A DNA stretch of 64,000 nt from Escherichia coli (lineage in GTDB: Bacteria; Pseudomonadota; Gammaproteobacteria; Enterobacterales; Enterobacteriaceae), in NCBI RefSeq assembly GCF_050920415.1, contig NZ_CP169309.1. One strand, given 5' to 3'. Under the pieces are notes generated by a model. That model searched no databases, was not told where the DNA came from, and saw nothing but the letters and a program-made list of their open reading frames with translations. Each line of letters opens with the position of its first letter. The stretch's first letter is position 1. Positions 2,019-33,044 of the stretch are shown in pieces. The translations under genes were made by a program, and so were the position numbers.

Positions 2019-2285
<267 letters not shown>

Positions 2286-2449: not shown

Positions 2450-2938
2450 ATGGTCTGGATTGATTACGCCATAATCGCGGTGATTGCTTTTTCCTCTCTG
2501 GTTAGCCTGATCCGCGGCTTTGTTCGTGAAGCGTTATCGCTGGTGACATGGGGTTGTGCTTTCTTTGTTGCCAGTCATTACTACACTTACCTGTCAGTCT
2601 GGTTTACGGGCTTTGAAGACGAACTGGTTCGAAATGGGATTGCCATCGCGGTACTGTTTATCGCTACCCTGATCGTTGGTGCTATCGTGAACTTCGTGAT
2701 AGGCCAGTTGGTGGAGAAAACGGGGTTGTCAGGCACCGACCGGGTGCTGGGCGTCTGTTTCGGTGCGTTGCGCGGTGTGTTGATTGTTGCTGCCATTCTC
2801 TTCTTTCTCGACTCCTTTACCGGGGTGTCGAAAAGCGAAGACTGGAGCAAATCACAGCTGATCCCGCAGTTCAGTTTTATCATCAGATGGTTTTTTGATT
2901 ATCTGCAAAGCTCGTCAAGTTTCTTGCCCAGAGCGTAA
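2450..2938 (+). CDS. cvpA: colicin V production / membrane integrity protein CvpA
   Basis: 162-aa multi-TM ORF MVWIDYAIIAVIAFSSLVSLIRGF; directly upstream of purF. Confidence 0.93.
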   Translation: MVWIDYAIIAVIAFSSLVSLIRGFVREALSLVTWGCAFFVASHYYTYLSVWFTGFEDELVRNGIAIAVLFIATLIVGAIVNFVIGQLVEKTGLSGTDRVLGVCFGALRGVLIVAAILFFLDSFTGVSKSEDWSKSQLIPQFSFIIRWFFDYLQSSSSFLPRA

Positions 2939-2974
2939 GTGCTCTGAGATGTGGCTTAACGAGGAAAAAGACGT

Positions 2975-4492
2975 ATGTGCGGTATTGTCGGTATCGCCGG
3001 TGTTATGCCGGTTAACCAGTCGATTTATGATGCCTTAACGGTGCTTCAGCATCGCGGTCAGGATGCCGCCGGCATCATCACCATTGATGCCAATAATTGC
3101 TTCCGTTTGCGTAAAGCGAACGGGCTGGTGAGCGATGTCTTCGAAGCTCGCCATATGCAGCGTTTGCAGGGCAATATGGGCATTGGTCATGTGCGTTACC
3201 CCACGGCTGGTAGCTCCAGCGCCTCTGAAGCGCAGCCGTTTTACGTTAACTCCCCGTATGGCATCACGCTTGCCCACAACGGCAATCTGACCAACGCTCA
3301 TGAGTTGCGTAAAAAACTGTTTGAAGAAAAACGCCGCCACATCAACACCACTTCCGACTCGGAAATTCTGCTTAATATCTTCGCCAGCGAGCTGGACAAC
3401 TTCCGCCACTACCCGCTGGAAGCCGACAACATCTTCGCCGCCATCGCCGCTACAAACCGCTTAATCCGCGGTGCGTATGCCTGTGTGGCGATGATTATCG
3501 GCCACGGTATGGTGGCTTTCCGCGATCCTAACGGTATTCGTCCGCTGGTACTGGGGAAACGTGATATCGACGACAATCGCACAGAATATATGGTCGCTTC
3601 CGAAAGCGTTGCGCTCGATACCCTGGGCTTTGAGTTCCTGCGTGATGTCGCCCCAGGCGAGGCGATTTACATCACTGAAGAAGGGCAGCTGTTTACCCGC
3701 CAGTGCGCTGACAACCCGGTCAGCAATCCGTGCCTGTTCGAGTATGTTTACTTTGCCCGACCAGACTCGTTCATCGACAAAATTTCCGTTTACAGCGCGC
3801 GTGTGAATATGGGCACCAAGCTGGGCGAGAAAATTGCTCGCGAATGGGAAGATCTGGATATCGACGTGGTGATCCCAATTCCGGAAACCTCTTGTGATAT
3901 CGCGCTGGAAATTGCTCGTATTCTGGGCAAACCGTACCGCCAGGGCTTCGTTAAAAACCGCTATGTTGGCCGCACCTTCATCATGCCTGGCCAGCAGCTG
4001 CGTCGTAAGTCCGTGCGCCGTAAACTGAACGCCAACCGCGCCGAGTTCCGCGATAAAAACGTCCTGCTGGTCGACGACTCCATCGTCCGTGGCACCACTT
4101 CTGAGCAGATTATCGAGATGGCACGCGAAGCCGGAGCGAAGAAAGTGTATCTCGCCTCAGCGGCACCGGAAATTCGCTTCCCGAACGTTTACGGTATCGA
4201 TATGCCGAGCGCCACGGAGCTTATCGCTCACGGTCGCGAAGTAGATGAAATTCGCCAGATCATCGGTGCTGATGGTTTGATTTTCCAGGATCTGAATGAT
4301 CTGATCGAAGCCGTCCGTGCGGAAAACCCGGATATCCAGCAGTTTGAATGCTCGGTGTTCAACGGCGTTTACGTCACCAAAGATGTTGATCAGGGCTACC
4401 TCGATTTCCTTGATACTTTACGTAATGACGACGCTAAAGCCGTGCAACGTCAGAACGAAGTGGAAAATCTCGAAATGCATAACGAAGGATAA
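2975..4492 (+). CDS. purF: amidophosphoribosyltransferase (glutamine PRPP amidotransferase)
   Basis: 505-aa ORF starting MCGIVGI (Ntn-type catalytic Cys after Met); PRTase motif [13 protein letters not shown]. Confidence 0.97.
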
Positions 4493-4586
4493 TGACTTCG
4501 CTCAGGGTGCCGGTCTGGCACCCTGACTTGCAACTCCCGCTGAAATCCTGCAAAGTCTGCCTGCAAGTCTGACAGGGCAACTATTT

Positions 4587-5156
4587 ATGAAACGACTCAT
4601 TGTAGGCATCAGCGGTGCCAGCGGCGCGATTTATGGCGTACGATTATTACAGGTTCTGCGCGATGTCACAGATATCGAAACGCATCTGGTAATGAGCCAG
4701 GCGGCGCGCCAGACCTTATCCCTTGAAACGGATTTCTCCCTGCGTGATGTGCAGGCATTAGCCGATGTCACGCACGATGCGCGCGATATTGCCGCCAGCA
4801 TCTCTTCTGGTTCTTTCCAGACGTTGGGGATGGTGATTTTACCCTGTTCAATCAAAACCCTGTCCGGCATTGTCCATAGCTATACGGATGGTTTACTGAC
4901 CCGTGCGGCAGATGTTGTGCTGAAAGAGCGTCGCCCGCTGGTGCTCTGCGTGCGTGAAACACCATTGCACTTAGGCCATCTGCGTTTAATGACTCAGGCG
5001 GCAGAAATCGGTGCGGTAATTATGCCTCCCGTTCCGGCATTTTATCATCGCCCACAATCCCTTGATGATGTGATAAATCAGACGGTTAACCGTGTTCTTG
5101 ACCAGTTTGCGATAAATCTACCCGAAGATCTCTTTGCCCGCTGGCAGGGCGCATAA
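4587..5156 (+). CDS. ubiX: flavin prenyltransferase UbiX
   Basis: 189-aa ORF MKRLIVGISGASGAIYGVRLLQVL, flavoprotein fold typical of UbiX/Pad1. Confidence 0.95.
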   Translation: MKRLIVGISGASGAIYGVRLLQVLRDVTDIETHLVMSQAARQTLSLETDFSLRDVQALADVTHDARDIAASISSGSFQTLGMVILPCSIKTLSGIVHSYTDGLLTRAADVVLKERRPLVLCVRETPLHLGHLRLMTQAAEIGAVIMPPVPAFYHRPQSLDDVINQTVNRVLDQFAINLPEDLFARWQGA

Positions 5157-5420: not shown

Positions 5421-6203
5421 ATGAAGAAGTCGATTCTCGCTCTGTCTTTGTTAGTCGGGATTTCCGCAGCAGCTTCCAGCTACGCGGCGCTGCCGGAGAC
5501 GGTACGTATCGGAACGGATACCACCTATGCACCGTTCTCATCGAAAGATGCCAAAGGTGACTTTGTTGGCTTTGATATCGATCTCGGTAACGAGATGTGC
5601 AAACGGATGCAGGTGAAATGTACCTGGGTTGCCAGTGACTTTGACGCGCTGATCCCCTCACTGAAAGCGAAAAAGATCGACGCCATTATTTCGTCGCTCT
5701 CCATTACGGATAAACGTCAGCAGGAGATTGCCTTCTCCGACAAACTGTACGCCGCAGACTCTCGTCTGATTGCTGCCAAAGGTTCACCGATTCAGCCAAC
5801 GCTGGATTCACTGAAAGGTAAACATGTTGGTGTGCTGCAGGGATCAACCCAGGAAGCGTATGCCAATGATAACTGGCGCAGTAAGGGTGTCGATGTGGTG
5901 GCCTATGCTAACCAGGATTTGGTCTATTCCGATCTGGCTGCAGGACGCCTGGATGCCGCTCTGCAAGATGAGGTTGCTGCCAGCGAAGGTTTCCTCAAGC
6001 AACCTGCCGGTAAAGATTTCGCTTTTGCAGGCCCTTCAGTGAAAGACAAAAAATACTTCGGTGACGGCACCGGTGTCGGGCTACGTAAAGATGATGCTGA
6101 ACTGACGGCTGCGTTTAATAAGGCGCTTGGCGAGCTGCGTCAGGACGGCACCTACGACAAGATGGCGAAAAAGTATTTCGACTTTAATGTCTACGGTGAC
6201 TGA
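5421..6203 (+). CDS. argT: lysine/arginine/ornithine-binding periplasmic protein
   Basis: 260-aa ORF with signal peptide [22 protein letters not shown]; paralogous to the following hisJ. Confidence 0.93.
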
Positions 6204-6420: not shown

Positions 6421-7203
6421 ATGAAAAAACTGGTGCTATCGCTCTCTCTGGTTCTGGCCTTCTCCAGCGCAACGGCGGCGTTTGCTGCGATTCCGCAAAA
6501 CATCCGCATCGGTACCGATCCGACCTATGCGCCATTTGAATCAAAAAATTCACAAGGTGAACTGGTTGGCTTCGATATCGATCTGGCAAAGGAGTTGTGC
6601 AAACGCATCAATACGCAATGTACGTTTGTCGAAAACCCACTGGATGCGTTAATCCCGTCCTTAAAAGCGAAGAAGATTGACGCCATCATGTCATCGCTTT
6701 CCATTACGGAAAAACGTCAGCAAGAAATTGCCTTCACCGACAAACTGTACGCTGCCGATTCTCGTCTGGTAGTGGCGAAAAATTCCGACATTCAGCCGAC
6801 AGTCGAGTCGCTGAAAGGCAAGCGCGTAGGCGTATTGCAGGGCACCACCCAGGAGACGTTCGGTAACGAACACTGGGCACCAAAAGGCATTGAAATCGTC
6901 TCTTATCAGGGGCAGGACAACATTTATTCTGACCTGACTGCCGGACGTATTGATGCCGCATTCCAGGATGAGGTCGCCGCCAGCGAAGGTTTCCTCAAAC
7001 AACCCGTTGGTAAAGATTACAAATTCGGTGGCCCGTCTGTTAAAGATGAAAAACTGTTTGGCGTAGGGACCGGCATGGGTCTGCGTAAAGAAGATAACGA
7101 ATTGCGCGAGGCACTGAACAAAGCCTTTGCCGAAATGCGCGCTGACGGTACTTACGAGAAATTAGCGAAAAAGTACTTCGATTTTGATGTTTATGGTGGT
7201 TAA
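6421..7203 (+). CDS. hisJ: histidine-binding periplasmic protein
   Basis: 260-aa ORF with signal peptide [22 protein letters not shown]; followed by hisQMP. Confidence 0.93.
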
Positions 7204-8699: not shown

Positions 8700-9473
8700 A
8701 TGTCCGAGAATAAATTAAACGTTATCGATTTGCACAAACGCTACGGCGAACACGAAGTGCTGAAAGGGGTCTCACTGCAAGCGAATGCCGGTGATGTCAT
8801 AAGTATCATCGGATCGTCGGGATCGGGGAAAAGTACCTTTCTGCGCTGCATTAACTTCCTCGAAAAACCGAGCGAAGGATCGATCGTCGTTAACGGCCAG
8901 ACGATCAATCTGGTGCGCGATAAAGACGGTCAACTCAAAGTCGCCGATAAAAATCAGCTGCGCTTACTGCGCACACGCCTGACGATGGTATTCCAGCACT
9001 TCAATCTCTGGAGCCATATGACGGTGCTGGAAAACGTCATGGAAGCGCCGATTCAGGTGTTAGGCCTGAGCAAGCAGGAAGCGCGCGAGCGGGCGGTGAA
9101 GTATCTGGCGAAAGTCGGGATAGACGAACGTGCGCAGGGGAAATACCCGGTGCATCTGTCCGGTGGTCAGCAACAGCGTGTTTCCATCGCGCGGGCGCTG
9201 GCGATGGAACCGGAAGTTTTACTGTTTGATGAACCTACCTCGGCGCTCGATCCTGAACTGGTAGGCGAAGTGCTGCGGATTATGCAGCAACTGGCAGAAG
9301 AGGGAAAAACCATGGTGGTGGTGACTCACGAAATGGGCTTTGCTCGCCATGTTTCTACTCACGTCATTTTTCTCCATCAGGGGAAAATAGAGGAAGAGGG
9401 CGCGCCGGAGCAGTTATTTGGCAACCCGCAAAGCCCTCGTCTGCAACAGTTCCTTAAGGGATCGCTGAAATAA
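8700..9473 (+). CDS. hisP: histidine/lysine/arginine/ornithine ABC transporter ATP-binding protein
   Basis: 257-aa ORF with Walker [13 protein letters not shown] signature LSGGQQQR and Walker [12 protein letters not shown]. Confidence 0.95.
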
Positions 9474-9479
9474 TTCCCT

Positions 9480-9503
9480 CTCCGGTGGCTAACGCTGCCG
9501 GAG
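9480..9503 (+). terminator. probable terminator of the his transport operon
   Basis: Hairpin CTCCGG-N12-CCGGAG just after the hisP stop, followed by TATTTCA. Confidence 0.4.
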
Positions 9504-9668
9504 TATTTCATGGGGAATTTGCGAGTCCGCTTCCGCTGAAATGTAAAAGTTGCAGTCCGCTAAAAATACTTCTGAATTCGCTCTCCAAAGATAAAAACTG
9601 CCTGCTGCATTGGGTGTAAATCGTGGTTATTGTCGCGTCATCTTAAATTTGAGGGGTGACGGAACGCC

Positions 9669-10559
9669 ATGACAATATCGACAACTTCCACGCCGCATGA
9701 TGCGGTATTTAAATCTTTTTTACGCCATCCAGACACCGCGCGGGATTTTATTGATATTCATCTTCCCGCGCCGCTGCGCAAACTGTGTGATTTAACGACG
9801 CTCAAACTGGAACCAAACAGTTTTATTGATGAAGACCTGCGGCAATATTATTCCGACCTCTTGTGGTCTGTGAAAACGCAGGAGGGAGCGGGTTATATTT
9901 ATGTGGTGATAGAGCACCAAAGTAAGCCGGAGGAATTAATGGCTTTTCGCATGATGCGCTATTCCATCGCGGCGATGCAAAACCATCTGGATGCAGGCTA
10001 TAAAGAGCTTCCATTGGTGATCCCCATGCTATTTTATCATGGTTGCAGTAGCCCTTATCCTTATTCACTCTGCTGGCTTGATGAATTTGCCGAGCCTGCG
10101 ATAGCCCGCAAAATATATTCATCAGCATTTCCGCTGGTGGATATTACCGTGGTGCCGGATGACGAGATTATGCAACATCGCAAAATGGCGCTGTTGGAGT
10201 TAATTCAGAAACATATTCGTCAGCGCGATCTGTTGGGATTAGTCGACCAAATTGTTTCGCTGCTAGTTACAGGGAACACTAATGACAGACAGCTAAAAGC
10301 CCTGTTTAATTACGTATTACAAACGGGAGATGCCCAGCGTTTCCGTGCATTTATTGGTGAGATAACAGAACGCGCACCACAAGAAAAGGAGAAACTGATG
10401 ACCATTGCTGACAGATTACGTGAAGAAGGCGCAATGCAGGGCAAACACGAAGAAGCTCTGCGTATTGCTCAGGAGATGCTGGAAAAAGGATTTGACCACG
10501 AAGTCATCCTGACGCTGACCCGACTTTCACCAGACGACCTTATCGCGCAAAGCCACTAA
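9669..10559 (+). CDS. rpnB: recombination-promoting nuclease RpnB (transposase-like PD-(D/E)XK family)
   Basis: 296-aa [36 protein letters not shown] typical of the Rpn/YhgA-like family; no flanking terminal inverted repeats seen. Confidence 0.85.
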
Positions 10560-10606
10560 TCCTGTAACACCGGGAATTAACTGGCGGATGTTTGCAGTAC
10601 ACCACA

Positions 10607-11500
10607 TCAGTGAACAACATCCGCCAGCGCCTCTTCTAAATCGTACCAGCGAAACGCAAAACCCGCTTCTTCCAGCCGTTTAGGCAATGCTCGTTGTCCA
10701 CCTAATACCAGTACTGAAGATTCGCCCATTAACAGTCGAATAGCGGTCGCGGGGACGCGCAAAATGGCCGGGCGATGCAGCGCATGACCGAGCGCATGGG
10801 CAAATTGTTCATTGCGTACCGGGTAGGGCGAAACCATATTAAACGGCCCGCGCAGCTCGTTATCCAGCAGCCAGAGAATACCGTTGACCATATCATCGAT
10901 ATGAATCCAGGCCAGATACTGCCGACCGGAGCCAATCGGCCCGCCCAGGCCAAGACGAAACGGCGGCAGCATTTTACCGAGGATCCCGCCGTCCGGTGCC
11001 AGCACCACGCCGGTACGCAGCAGGCACACACGTGTTTTGTCGCTTTGCGCCCGACAGGCAATCTCTTCCCAACGAGCGCAGAGTTTATGGGTAAATTCGT
11101 TATGCGGCGGTTCCTCTTCAGTAACCACCACTTCACCTAAGTCGCCATAATAGCCCGTTGCCGAACCGGAAATGAGTACCGACGGCGGCGTGTCGCTGGC
11201 ATTAATTAGATCGACCAGTTTTTGCGTGATATTCCAGCGGCTTTGGCAGAGACGATCTTTTTGCTCGTGAGTCCAGCGTTTATCGGCAATCGGTTCTCCA
11301 GCCAGGTTGATTACCGCATCAACGCCATTGAGGTTGCTTTGATCTGCAAGCCCTTGCCATAGTGTCACCCGGGGGCCGAGAACGGAACTGGCTTTCTGCG
11401 GGTTACGTGTCACTACCGTGATTTGATGGCCCAGCTCCAGCAAACGTGGAATCAAATGGCGACCAATTAATCCCGTCCCTCCGGTGATCACTATGTTCAT
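10607..11500 (-). CDS. yfcH: epimerase-family protein YfcH (NAD-binding, SDR-like)
   Basis: 297-aa ORF with N-terminal Rossmann motif ITGGTGLIG. Confidence 0.88.
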
Positions 11501-29364: not shown

Positions 29365-31155
29365 ATGACCGACTTAACCGCGCAAGAACCCGCCTGGCAG
29401 ACCCGCGATCATCTTGATGATCCGGTGATTGGCGAACTGCGCAACCGTTTTGGGCCGGATGCCTTTACTGTTCAGGCGACTCGCACCGGGGTTCCCGTTG
29501 TGTGGATCAAGCGTGAACAATTACTGGAAGTGGGTGATTTCTTAAAGAAACTGCCGAAACCTTACGTCATGCTGTTTGACTTACACGGCATGGACGAACG
29601 TCTGCGCACACACCGCGAAGGGTTACCTGCCGCGGATTTTTCCGTTTTCTACCATCTGATATCTATTGATCGTAACCGCGACATCATGCTGAAGGTGGCG
29701 CTGGCAGAAAACGACCTGCACGTACCGACCTTCACCAAGCTGTTCCCGAACGCTAACTGGTATGAGCGTGAAACCTGGGATCTGTTTGGCATTACTTTCG
29801 ACGGTCACCCCAATTTGCGCCGCATCATGATGCCGCAAACCTGGAAAGGTCACCCGCTGCGTAAAGATTACCCGGCGCGCGCTACCGAATTCTCGCCGTT
29901 TGAGCTGACCAAAGCCAAACAGGATCTGGAGATGGAAGCCCTGACCTTCAAACCGGAAGAGTGGGGGATGAAGCGCGGCACCGAAAATGAAGACTTCATG
30001 TTCCTCAACCTCGGTCCGAACCACCCGTCGGCGCACGGTGCTTTCCGTATCGTTTTGCAGCTCGATGGCGAAGAGATTGTCGACTGCGTACCAGACATCG
30101 GTTACCACCACCGTGGCGCGGAGAAAATGGGCGAGCGCCAGTCATGGCACAGCTACATTCCGTATACCGACCGTATCGAATATCTCGGTGGCTGTGTTAA
30201 CGAGATGCCGTATGTACTGGCGGTAGAGAAACTGGCCGGGATCACCGTACCAGATCGCGTTAACGTCATTCGCGTAATGCTTTCTGAGCTGTTCCGCATC
30301 AACAGCCACCTGCTGTATATCTCGACCTTTATTCAGGATGTCGGCGCGATGACGCCAGTGTTCTTCGCCTTTACCGATCGTCAGAAAATTTACGATCTGG
30401 TGGAAGCAATCACTGGTTTCCGTATGCACCCGGCGTGGTTCCGTATTGGCGGCGTAGCGCACGACCTGCCGCGTGGCTGGGATCGCCTGCTGCGTGAGTT
30501 CCTCGACTGGATGCCGAAACGTCTGGCGTCTTATGAGAAAGCGGCGCTGCAAAACACCATTTTGAAAGGCCGTTCCCAGGGCGTAGCCGCCTACGGCGCG
30601 AAAGAGGCGCTGGAGTGGGGCACCACCGGTGCTGGTTTGCGCGCTACCGGGATCGACTTCGATGTGCGTAAGGCGCGTCCTTATTCTGGCTATGAAAACT
30701 TCGACTTTGAAATCCCGGTTGGTGGTGGTGTTTCTGACTGCTACACCCGCGTAATGCTGAAAGTGGAAGAACTGCGTCAGAGTCTGCGCATTCTTGAGCA
30801 GTGCCTCAACAACATGCCGGAAGGCCCGTTCAAAGCGGATCACCCGCTGACCACGCCGCCGCCGAAAGAGCGCACGTTGCAACATATCGAAACCCTGATC
30901 ACCCACTTCCTGCAAGTGTCGTGGGGGCCGGTGATGCCTGCCAATGAATCTTTCCAGATGATTGAGGCGACCAAAGGGATCAACAGTTACTACCTGACCA
31001 GCGACGGCAGCACCATGAGTTATCGCACCCGTATCCGTACGCCGAGTTATGCGCATTTGCAGCAAATTCCGGCGGCGATCCGCGGCAGCCTGGTGTCTGA
31101 CCTGATTGTTTATCTGGGCAGTATCGATTTTGTTATGTCAGATGTGGACCGCTAA
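29365..31155 (+). CDS. nuoC: NADH:quinone oxidoreductase fused subunit C/D
   Basis: Fused 30-kDa and 49-kDa subunit domains; start chosen at the ATG preceded by a GGTGA Shine-Dalgarno (MTDLTAQEP), track ORF starts at 29353. Confidence 0.93.
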
Positions 31156-31157
31156 TT

Positions 31158-31658
31158 ATGCACGAGAATCAACAACCACAAACCGAGGCTTTTGAGCTGA
31201 GTGCGGCTGAGCGTGAAGCGATTGAGCACGAGATGCACCACTACGAAGACCCGCGTGCGGCGTCCATTGAAGCGCTGAAAATCGTTCAGAAACAGCGTGG
31301 ATGGGTGCCAGACGGCGCGATCCACGCGATCGCTGACGTTCTGGGTATTCCCGCAAGTGATGTCGAAGGCGTGGCTACTTTCTACAGCCAGATCTTCCGC
31401 CAGCCGGTTGGTCGCCATGTGATCCGTTATTGCGACAGCGTGGTCTGTCACATTAACGGTTACCAGGGCATTCAGGCGGCGCTGGAGAAAAAACTGAACA
31501 TCAAACCAGGGCAAACGACGTTTGACGGGCGCTTTACGCTGCTGCCAACTTGCTGCCTGGGGAACTGCGACAAAGGGCCAAACATGATGATCGATGAGGA
31601 CACTCACGCGCATCTGACTCCGGAAGCGATTCCTGAACTGCTGGAGCGGTATAAATGA
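31158..31658 (+). CDS. nuoE: NADH:quinone oxidoreductase subunit E
   Basis: 166-aa ORF with 2Fe-2S thioredoxin-like cysteine pattern. Confidence 0.95.
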
Positions 31659-32992
31659 AAAACATTATCCGTACTCCCGAAACGCATCCGCTGACCTGGC
31701 GTCTGCGTGATGACAAACAGCCAGTGTGGCTGGACGAATATCGCAGCAAAAACGGTTACGAAGGCGCGCGTAAGGCGCTGACCGGGCTGTCTCCGGACGA
31801 GATCGTCAATCAGGTTAAAGACGCTGGCCTGAAAGGGCGCGGCGGTGCGGGCTTCTCGACTGGCCTGAAATGGAGCCTGATGCCGAAAGACGAATCCATG
31901 AACATCCGTTACCTGCTGTGTAACGCCGATGAAATGGAGCCGGGCACTTATAAAGACCGCCTGCTGATGGAGCAACTGCCGCACCTGCTGGTGGAAGGTA
32001 TGCTCATCTCCGCATTTGCGCTGAAAGCTTACCGTGGCTACATCTTCTTGCGTGGCGAATATATCGAGGCGGCAGTGAATCTGCGCCGTGCCATTGCCGA
32101 AGCCACCGAAGCAGGGCTGCTCGGCAAAAACATTATGGGAACAGGTTTCGATTTCGAACTGTTCGTCCATACCGGGGCAGGGCGCTACATCTGCGGGGAA
32201 GAAACAGCGTTAATCAACTCCCTGGAAGGGCGTCGCGCTAACCCACGCTCGAAGCCCCCCTTCCCGGCAACCTCTGGCGTTTGGGGCAAACCGACCTGTG
32301 TCAACAACGTCGAAACCCTGTGTAACGTTCCGGCGATCCTCGCTAACGGCGTGGAGTGGTATCAGAACATCTCGAAAAGCAAAGATGCTGGCACCAAGCT
32401 GATGGGCTTCTCCGGTCGGGTGAAAAATCCGGGCCTGTGGGAACTGCCGTTCGGCACTACCGCACGCGAGATCCTCGAAGATTACGCCGGTGGTATGCGT
32501 GACGGCCTAAAATTCAAAGCCTGGCAGCCAGGCGGTGCGGGCACTGACTTCCTGACCGAAGCGCACCTTGATCTGCCGATGGAATTCGAAAGTATCGGTA
32601 AAGCGGGCAGCCGTCTGGGTACGGCGCTGGCGATGGCGGTTGATCACGAGATCAACATGGTGTCGCTGGTACGAAACCTGGAAGAGTTTTTCGCCCGTGA
32701 GTCCTGCGGCTGGTGTACGCCGTGCCGTGATGGTCTGCCGTGGAGCGTGAAAATTCTGCGCGCGCTGGAGCGTGGCGAAGGTCAGCCGGGTGATATCGAA
32801 ACACTTGAGCAACTGTGTCGATTCTTGGGTCCGGGTAAAACTTTCTGTGCCCACGCACCTGGTGCAGTGGAGCCGTTACAGAGCGCCATCAAATATTTCC
32901 GCGAAGAATTTGAGGCGGGAATCAAACAGCCGTTCAGCAATACCCATTTGATTAATGGGATTCAGCCGAACCTGCTGAAAGAGCGCTGGTAA
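31655..32992 (+). CDS. nuoF: NADH:quinone oxidoreductase subunit F (NADH- and FMN-binding)
   Basis: 445-aa ORF with glycine-rich nucleotide-binding region and C-terminal 4Fe-4S cysteines. Confidence 0.95.
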
Positions 32993-33044
32993 CCGAATTT
33001 CGATTAACGCTCAGTCTCTGACTGAGAAAACTGGAAGCATGCTA

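Follow-up and report, generated by a model that had tools for sequence, protein, structure and literature searches.

Probable gene-within-a-gene toxin-antitoxin organization of rpnB between hisP and yfcH in a divergent Escherichia coli

The hisP-yfcH interval of Escherichia coli harbors a gene whose product carries the family name of a transposase, which raises the question of whether this gene is the remnant of a mobile element or serves a function of its own. We addressed this question in a 64,000-nucleotide stretch of E. coli DNA (NZ_CP169309.1; hereafter the window), in which the gene occupies positions 9669..10559 on the plus strand. An original prediction, made from the letters of the window, had regarded it as rpnB, a stand-alone domesticated transposase. 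The identity of the gene was upheld in our analysis, and the remainder of this description was not. The best explanation as a whole, to which we assign a probability of about 0.9, is that rpnB is a chromosomal gene-within-a-gene toxin-antitoxin module, in which the nuclease would be held in check by the nested product RpnB_S. The gene is better annotated as a two-product toxin-antitoxin gene encoding RpnB_L and the nested RpnB_S than as a lone "domesticated transposase." As the E. coli rpnB gene has already been characterized, our analysis adds little beyond this correct annotation.

Gene identity and the nuclease domain

The rpnB frame, delimited from ATG to stop and consistent with profile matches and RefSeq annotation, comprises 296 codons without interruption in the open reading frame listing of the window, corresponding to the full-length, putative nuclease toxin RpnB_L of 296 amino acids. 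An HMM search placed its product in the Rpn/YhgA-like PD-(D/E)XK family, as had been predicted: the Pfam family PF04754 (Transposase_31/YhgA-like) matched amino acids 8-209 over profile positions 1-202 of 203 (E 3.7e-91), and the NCBIfam model of the Rpn family, TIGR01784, scored 189.7 bits at a cutoff of 52.1. The score of the NCBIfam RpnA equivalog model (467) was under its cutoff of 583, which is expected of a non-RpnA paralog. The predicted protein is 96% identical to RpnB (YfcI) of strain K-12 without any indel, compared to 66%, 52%, and 65% identity to the paralogs RpnA, RpnC, and RpnE, respectively. In the RefSeq sequence NZ_CP169399.1 of E. coli MFDS1022581, which is 100% identical over the region, the same coding sequence is annotated by PGAP as rpnB (WP_000156136.1).

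The predicted placement between the his transport operon and yfcH also held. hisP (8700-9473, plus strand), the last gene of argT-hisJQMP, lies 195 bp upstream of rpnB, and yfcH (10607-11500, minus strand) is convergent downstream, with a 47-bp spacer separating the two stop codons. The order hisP-rpnB-yfcH is the same in the K-12-type locus, and by this synteny and its highest identity to K-12 RpnB, 9669-10559 can be taken as the rpnB ortholog. K-12 RpnB (YfcI, b2305) and the window allele share their locus, the length of 296 amino acids, the catalytic residues, M244, and an AAGGAG motif. They differ at 13 amino acid positions, 9 of which fall within amino acids 272-283 of the antitoxin/C-terminal domain. 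Upstream of hisQMP, argT (5421-6203) and hisJ (6421-7203; both plus strand) form the expected arrangement of tandem paralogous periplasmic binding-protein genes, encoding 260 amino acids each.

The PF04754 domain (amino acids 8-209) is encoded at 9690..10295 on the plus strand, and its N-terminal part corresponds to the PD-(D/E)XK core. Conservation was assessed in a six-sequence alignment, including window RpnB, K-12 RpnA, RpnC, and RpnE, and a Citrobacter relative, and in a second alignment of 38 homologs with 52-96% identity. D11, D63, E82, Q84, and R94 were invariant in both; the codons of D63, E82, and Q84 are located at 9855-9857, 9912-9914, and 9918-9920, respectively, on the plus strand. 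D165 of the PDDE motif (amino acids 163-166) was invariant among the 6 sequences but not among the 38, in which D164 was invariant instead. In RpnA, the exchanges D11A, D63A, E82A, and Q84K led to loss of the recombination, toxicity, and SOS phenotypes, D63A additionally to loss of nuclease activity in vitro, and D165A generated a hyperactive protein (PMC5350276). Read against the RpnA mutants, from which their functional meaning is taken, the catalytic residues of RpnB are intact. Codons 1-243 differ from K-12 by 20 synonymous and 4 nonsynonymous changes (dN 0.007, dS 0.134; dN/dS about 0.05). Since these values are close to those of the neighbors hisP and yfcH, the nuclease domain is under purifying selection. 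AlphaFold2 models built with 6 and then 38 sequences were of low confidence (pLDDT 54.8 and 58.9), and the resemblance to the PD-(D/E)XK effectors HamA, SduA, and McrC that a fold search with such a model returned lends support without deciding the matter. The sequence identity of RpnB to HamA (Hachiman), SduA (Shedu), and McrC is 5-13%, and these effectors have other partners and regulation, so the likeness is one of fold only.

The nested antitoxin RpnB_S and its variation

Within rpnB, an in-frame gene of 53 codons, rpnB_S (10398..10559, plus strand), starts at the internal ATG of codon M244 (10398-10400, plus strand) and encodes a putative antitoxin that ends with AQSH and equals the C-terminal three-helix domain of RpnB_L. 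A Shine-Dalgarno motif, AAGGAG, was read from the sequence at 10385..10390 (plus strand), 7 nt upstream of this ATG. It coincides with codons K240-E241. All 38 homologs share M244 and E241, and at least 90% of them share K240; in RpnA the combined exchange K240R+E241D+M244L at the internal translation initiation site (iTIS) abolished RpnA_S (PMC10327210).

In K-12, Zhong et al. 2023 identified RpnB_S as the cognate antitoxin of toxic full-length RpnB. Tagging detected both RpnB_S, produced from the iTIS, and RpnB_L; abolishing the internal start (RpnB_L*) raised toxicity above that of RpnB_LS; and RpnB-dependent SOS induction was blocked by RpnB_S but not by RpnA_S (PMC10327210). Their designation "RpnB_S D29" is consistent with numbering from M244 of the K-12 sequence. 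For RpnA, a direct complex of the S and L proteins, inhibition of DNA cleavage, and the structure of RpnA_S (PDB 7TH0) were reported (PMC10327210), and Ribo-RET peaks were found in all five rpn genes (bioRxiv 10.1101/520783). RpnA (YhgA) is encoded at another locus, between feoC and bioH rather than between hisP and yfcH. RpnA_S with RpnB_L and RpnB_S with RpnA_L show no cross-neutralization, and the tails of RpnA and RpnB are about 35% identical.

The 53-amino-acid RpnB_S of the window aligned to 7TH0 along its entire length (E 9.1e-5), and the modeled RpnB tail superimposed on this structure with 1.4 A over 46 of 46 residues, albeit in a low-confidence AlphaFold2 model. The window allele carries the sequence features of a separately translated RpnS, the translation itself being known from K-12, and with 96% identity and an intact internal start it would be expected to act as a toxin-antitoxin pair. 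The statements that rpnB stands alone and has no partner genes do not survive these observations, because the partner is nested inside the reading frame (M244 start, AAGGAG, RpnB_S; PMC10327210; 10.1101/520783) and the gene would constitute a two-product, gene-within-a-gene toxin-antitoxin module.

Pfam searches with the 53-amino-acid tail by itself returned sub-threshold noise only, e.g., PPR and DEP. Amino acids 13-41 of RpnB_S (10434-10520) form a helix-turn-helix resembling the pentatricopeptide repeat consensus. Matches to designer PPR proteins in the PDB, reaching E values down to 6e-33 in phmmer, were rejected as a summed artifact of one hairpin aligned to many identical repeats; each single stretch was nonsignificant. 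Such summed PPR-like matches are a trap for automated annotation. For the Rpn homologs P0001-P0120, the precomputed annotation adds a second Pfam family, PF27070.1, beside PF04754.

The antitoxin domain varies in two ways. At 10430..10440 (plus strand), a DNA alignment of six alleles revealed the insertion site of a 12-bp repeat encoding 4 amino acids. The window allele lacks this repeat (REEG-AMQ-GK), and other E. coli alleles carry an additional 12 or 24 bp right after REEG, 11 residues past M244, as exemplified by the translated allele of H14, REEGRNDGLILGK, and by strain 14EC047, whose allele contains +24 bp together with a stop codon. Zhong et al. described 4-amino-acid repeat expansions 8-20 residues after the start, a range that includes the rpnB site. 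The other variation is a hyperdivergent dimorphic patch of amino acids 272-283, encoded at 10484..10515 (plus strand) and extending from the end of helix 1 through helix 2 of RpnB_S. Here, 9 of 12 residues are changed compared to K-12 (DRGLDRELVMMV), and 15 of 41 nucleotide differences from K-12 are concentrated in these 32 bp. dN and dS amount to 0.38 and 0.49 in the patch, in contrast to 0.007 and 0.13 in codons 1-243. In the last 120 bp of rpnB, 892 genomes were of the window type, 3,861 of the K-12 type, and 2 intermediate. The K-12-like form also occurs in other Escherichia species, and the window allele represents a minority haplotype.

With both dN and dS elevated, the patch is more suggestive of a haplotype that was imported or is very old than of point mutations acquired recently. 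In a word-11 blastn search, the final 120 bp of the gene matched exactly one place per E. coli genome, so there is no paralogous donor of the patch within E. coli. Gene conversion from a paralog was rejected as the source, given this single-copy tail, the dissimilarity of the K-12 RpnA, RpnC, and RpnE tails to the patch, and the K-12-like form of the other Escherichia species. It is tempting to speculate that the patch adds another determinant of Rpn toxin-antitoxin specificity to the published one, the number of 4-amino-acid repeats, although we regard this idea as doubtful, with perhaps one chance in a few. If the two forms are under balancing, phage-driven selection or stem from an unsampled relative, RpnB_L/RpnB_S might fall into mutually noncognate classes, and the window would then carry the minority RpnB class. 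In any case, the dimorphic patch offers a small lead for the study of Rpn diversification.

Presence, absence, and the question of mobility

Of 5,426 complete E. coli genomes, 4,755 contained a 1,002-bp segment that extends rpnB by 90 bp on the upstream and by 21 bp on the downstream side (9579..10580, plus strand; delimited by alignment to the rpnB-less strain FDAARGOS_1266), and 670 (12%) carried the absent allele. Across these genomes the segment was always chromosomal, never on a plasmid, and confined to one locus, at one place per genome and at two only where split by an insertion. In the rpnB-less allele, the 1,002 bp are replaced by a 27-bp filler, ATCTATATTTATTCATCAGCGTTTCCG. Together with the adjoining flank, this filler matches 10113..10145 (plus strand), an internal rpnB segment of codons about 149-159, with 29 identities in 33 ungapped positions (score 25; 10.2 +/- 1.3 and at most 16 in 500 shuffles). 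A scar of 21-33 nt from inside rpnB thus survives in rpnB-less genomes, as seen in FDAARGOS_1266 (L001:2080-2118). Because the scar derives from the rpnB interior, this allele is what a deletion left behind rather than a target that was never occupied, and its reading as a clean empty site was rejected. A comparison of synteny across strains, proposed with the original prediction as a check for insertion polymorphism, therefore bore out presence and absence of the gene but not insertion: what looks like an insertion polymorphism of rpnB in E. coli goes back to a deletion, with a scar of rpnB left in place.

The right breakpoint falls within CTGG(C/T)GGAT(G/A)TT, a 10/12 near-repeat shared by rpnB (10134-10145) and the left arm of a downstream hairpin (10581-10592), and the deletion probably formed through this 12-nt microhomology. 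The hairpin is a 12-bp perfect inverted repeat, CTGGCGGATGTT / AACATCCGCCAG, found by repeat search at 10581..10627, from the rpnB-yfcH spacer into the last yfcH codons. It is predicted to fold in both orientations (plus strand, -27.7 kcal/mol, z -3.9; minus strand, -28.4 kcal/mol, z -2.2), is common to both convergent transcripts, and might act as a terminator, albeit one that is not followed by a U-run. On the other side of the gene, a terminator scan detected an intrinsic-terminator-like hairpin of hisP at 9480..9503 (plus strand; RNA fold -25.6 kcal/mol, z -3.4), followed by TATTTCAT. This hairpin stands between the his operon and rpnB and occurs in rpnB-bearing and rpnB-less alleles alike. 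A simple, uninformative consensus scan returned no sigma-70 promoter upstream of either start. In K-12 RNA-seq data, yfcH and rpnB form an overlapping convergent pair (PMC12288877), and by analogy rpnB is probably expressed in the strain of the window.

A survey of the hisP-yfcH gap with a YfcH probe in one genome per species showed that E. coli, two cryptic-clade Escherichia species, and E. whittamii have rpnB between yfcH and hisP, with 91-97% amino acid identity. One Citrobacter metagenome-assembled genome contained a GNAT-like open reading frame and a 65%-identical rpn gene, the latter proximal to hisP, and its upstream region was partly alignable with the window. In most Citrobacter, Enterobacter, Kosakonia, Lelliottia, Leclercia, and similar genomes, the gap holds an open reading frame of about 169 amino acids, GNAT-like by sequence inspection; Klebsiella and Trabulsiella possess two further frames of about 85 (HicA-like by eye) and 188 amino acids; and in Salmonella arizonae and diarizonae the gap measures 49-60 bp only (gap loci in other Enterobacteriaceae: L014, L023, L025, L031, L034, L038, L039, L048, and L057). 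The hisP-yfcH gap is a small variable islet that has long been occupied by rpnB within Escherichia, where the gene is a fixed and immobile resident, occasionally lost by deletion or disruption. The variable gap content across Enterobacteriaceae is a small lead for Rpn diversification. Disrupted alleles include that of strain SE11, in which a Mu-like prophage end with tail-fiber, invertase, and Com genes abuts a 5'-truncated rpnB (L002:1-3546), and that of strain 3985, which carries an ISVsa5 (IS4-like) insertion in rpnB (L095:2591-4831). Strain 2024CK-00475 has a W66stop that leaves rpnB_S intact (L007:671-1561), and in 14EC047 the stop codon lies within the 24-bp repeat expansion (L005:671-1585).

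These data bear on two alternatives to a functional toxin-antitoxin module. An autonomous insertion sequence or transposon, active now or recently, would explain the polymorphism by insertion into the hisP-yfcH spacer, and the names Transposase_31 and "ISNCY family transposase" (NCBIfam NF007418, 461 bits, under the cutoff of 583), the presence or absence of exactly one gene, and the sequence GAATT bordering the segment on either side in the window seem to fit. The Pfam name is historical, however, and GAATT was dismissed as a target-site duplication, since the right edge reads GAGTT in K-12 and other Escherichia and the 5-bp match is a coincidence of the window allele. Repeats between the two flanks were no better than expected by chance, with a best score of 11 for terminal inverted repeats (9.9 +/- 1.7 in shuffles, 87 of 300 as good) and of 10 for direct repeats (9.6 in shuffles, 133 of 300 as good), and a repeat search of the region detected no terminal inverted-repeat pair around rpnB. 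Add to this the rpnB-derived filler, a product of deletion, and the single copy at one chromosomal locus, and the transposon reading is largely refuted; we give it hardly any probability at all. Zhong et al. argue explicitly against transposition for the whole Rpn family (PMC10327210). rpnB does share with classical insertion sequences a one-gene unit and a patchy distribution across genera, and with TnsA, the transposase subunit of Tn7, the predicted PD-(D/E)XK catalytic fold. It differs from insertion sequences and Tn7 in having no terminal inverted repeats, target-site duplication, second transposition protein, or variation in copy number or position. The original prediction was therefore right to see neither terminal inverted repeats nor a target-site duplication and, given also the dN/dS of about 0.05, no active mobile element. 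Its label "domesticated transposase" gains no support; to our knowledge, transposition has never been shown for any Rpn protein.

Alternatively, rpnB might be a decaying relic that has no current function and is kept by drift. The gene is dispensable and deleted in 12% of the genomes, nonsense alleles, the ISVsa5 insertion, and the Mu-like prophage insertion were sampled, and its deletion in K-12 had no recombination phenotype. This is difficult to reconcile with the intact frame in the window, the predominance of synonymous changes in the nuclease domain, the invariance of catalytic residues and internal start across species, the retention of the gene at this locus by several species of Escherichia, and the detection of both proteins in K-12. 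We consider decay very improbable, if slightly less so than transposition.

Possible roles of RpnB and the setting of the window

The favored toxin-antitoxin module would operate as follows. From the ATG at 9669, RpnB_L would be produced as a Mg2+-dependent PD-(D/E)XK DNA endonuclease, which if left unchecked would cause DNA damage and SOS induction. The internal ATG at 10398 with its own AAGGAG would yield the 53-amino-acid RpnB_S, whose sequence is that of the C-terminal three-helix domain of RpnB_L; by pairing with this domain, RpnB_S would keep the nuclease inactive. Allelic variation of the C-terminal domain, in the 4-amino-acid repeats and the dimorphic 12-residue patch, would set specificity, and toxin tail and antitoxin would covary because they are encoded by the same DNA. 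Dissociation of the L:S complex might trigger abortive or anti-phage defense, with RecA-independent recombination as a side effect of DNA nicking. At 96% identity, the window allele would be expected to behave as K-12 RpnB, for which toxicity, SOS induction, and the specific block by RpnB_S are established (PMC10327210).

With regard to physiology, abortive or anti-phage defense appears to be the most likely role of RpnB, by analogy to a relative. The plasmid-encoded RpnP2_LS of ECOR13 belongs to the same family and follows the same gene-within-a-gene toxin-antitoxin logic, but unlike chromosomal RpnB it is plasmid borne and strongly toxic in the absence of the S protein. RpnP2 protects against T-even phages, and it is the only Rpn system, not chromosomal RpnB, for which this was demonstrated. 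Our confidence in the defense role is moderate because protection is known from RpnP2 only, PADLOC has no corresponding model, and the neighborhood is one of housekeeping genes. Accordingly, PADLOC-DB 2.0.0, a database without an Rpn model, returned no match to rpnB, and no defense-island context was found around the gene among its housekeeping neighbors, which does not refute a role in defense.

A competing proposal, by Kingston et al., assigns RpnB a role in RecA-independent (illegitimate) recombination and uptake of foreign DNA, with RpnB_S then acting as a dosage brake. Overexpressed RpnB raised RecA-independent recombination 19-fold, yet basal recombination was unchanged in a quadruple rpnA-D deletion (PMC5350276). 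That protection against phages is on record for RpnP2 and not for chromosomal RpnB, and that the rpnB locus lies outside a defense island, would favor recombination as the purpose of RpnB. Against it stand the toxin-antitoxin behavior and hypervariable specificity domains, which are typical of defense modules, the protection conferred by the relative RpnP2, and the dimorphic patch and repeat variation, which suggest diversifying pressure. We therefore judge this role unlikely, though considerably less so than decay or transposition, and retain defense by a toxin-antitoxin module as the preferred interpretation.

The divergence of rpnB from K-12 needs to be seen against that of the window itself. 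Three probes (2900-5100, 9000-11200, and 30000-32200) were about 95-96% identical to about 5,420 complete E. coli genomes, the exceptions being the identical MFDS1022581 and at most one other genome with at least 99% identity in two of the three probes. This low identity implies that the window stems from an unusually divergent E. coli lineage close to the limits of the species. hisP and yfcH show a synonymous divergence from K-12 of 0.15-0.17, and a local excess of divergence around rpnB was rejected, as identity to other E. coli is about 95-96% throughout the window.

Farther from rpnB, two tandem matches to the Rfam family naRNA4 (RF02564, nucleoid-associated noncoding RNA/REP-type) were detected in the dedD-cvpA gap at 2072-2142 and 2163-2233 (plus strand; 75 and 81 bits), and a match to the Rfam nuoG RNA motif (RF01748) lies in the nuoF-nuoG gap at 32995-33037 (plus strand; 50.3 bits). 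elaD, encoding an ElaD/SseL-family deubiquitinase (45258-46480, minus strand), is recorded as a frameshifted pseudogene in the annotation of the identical RefSeq genome.
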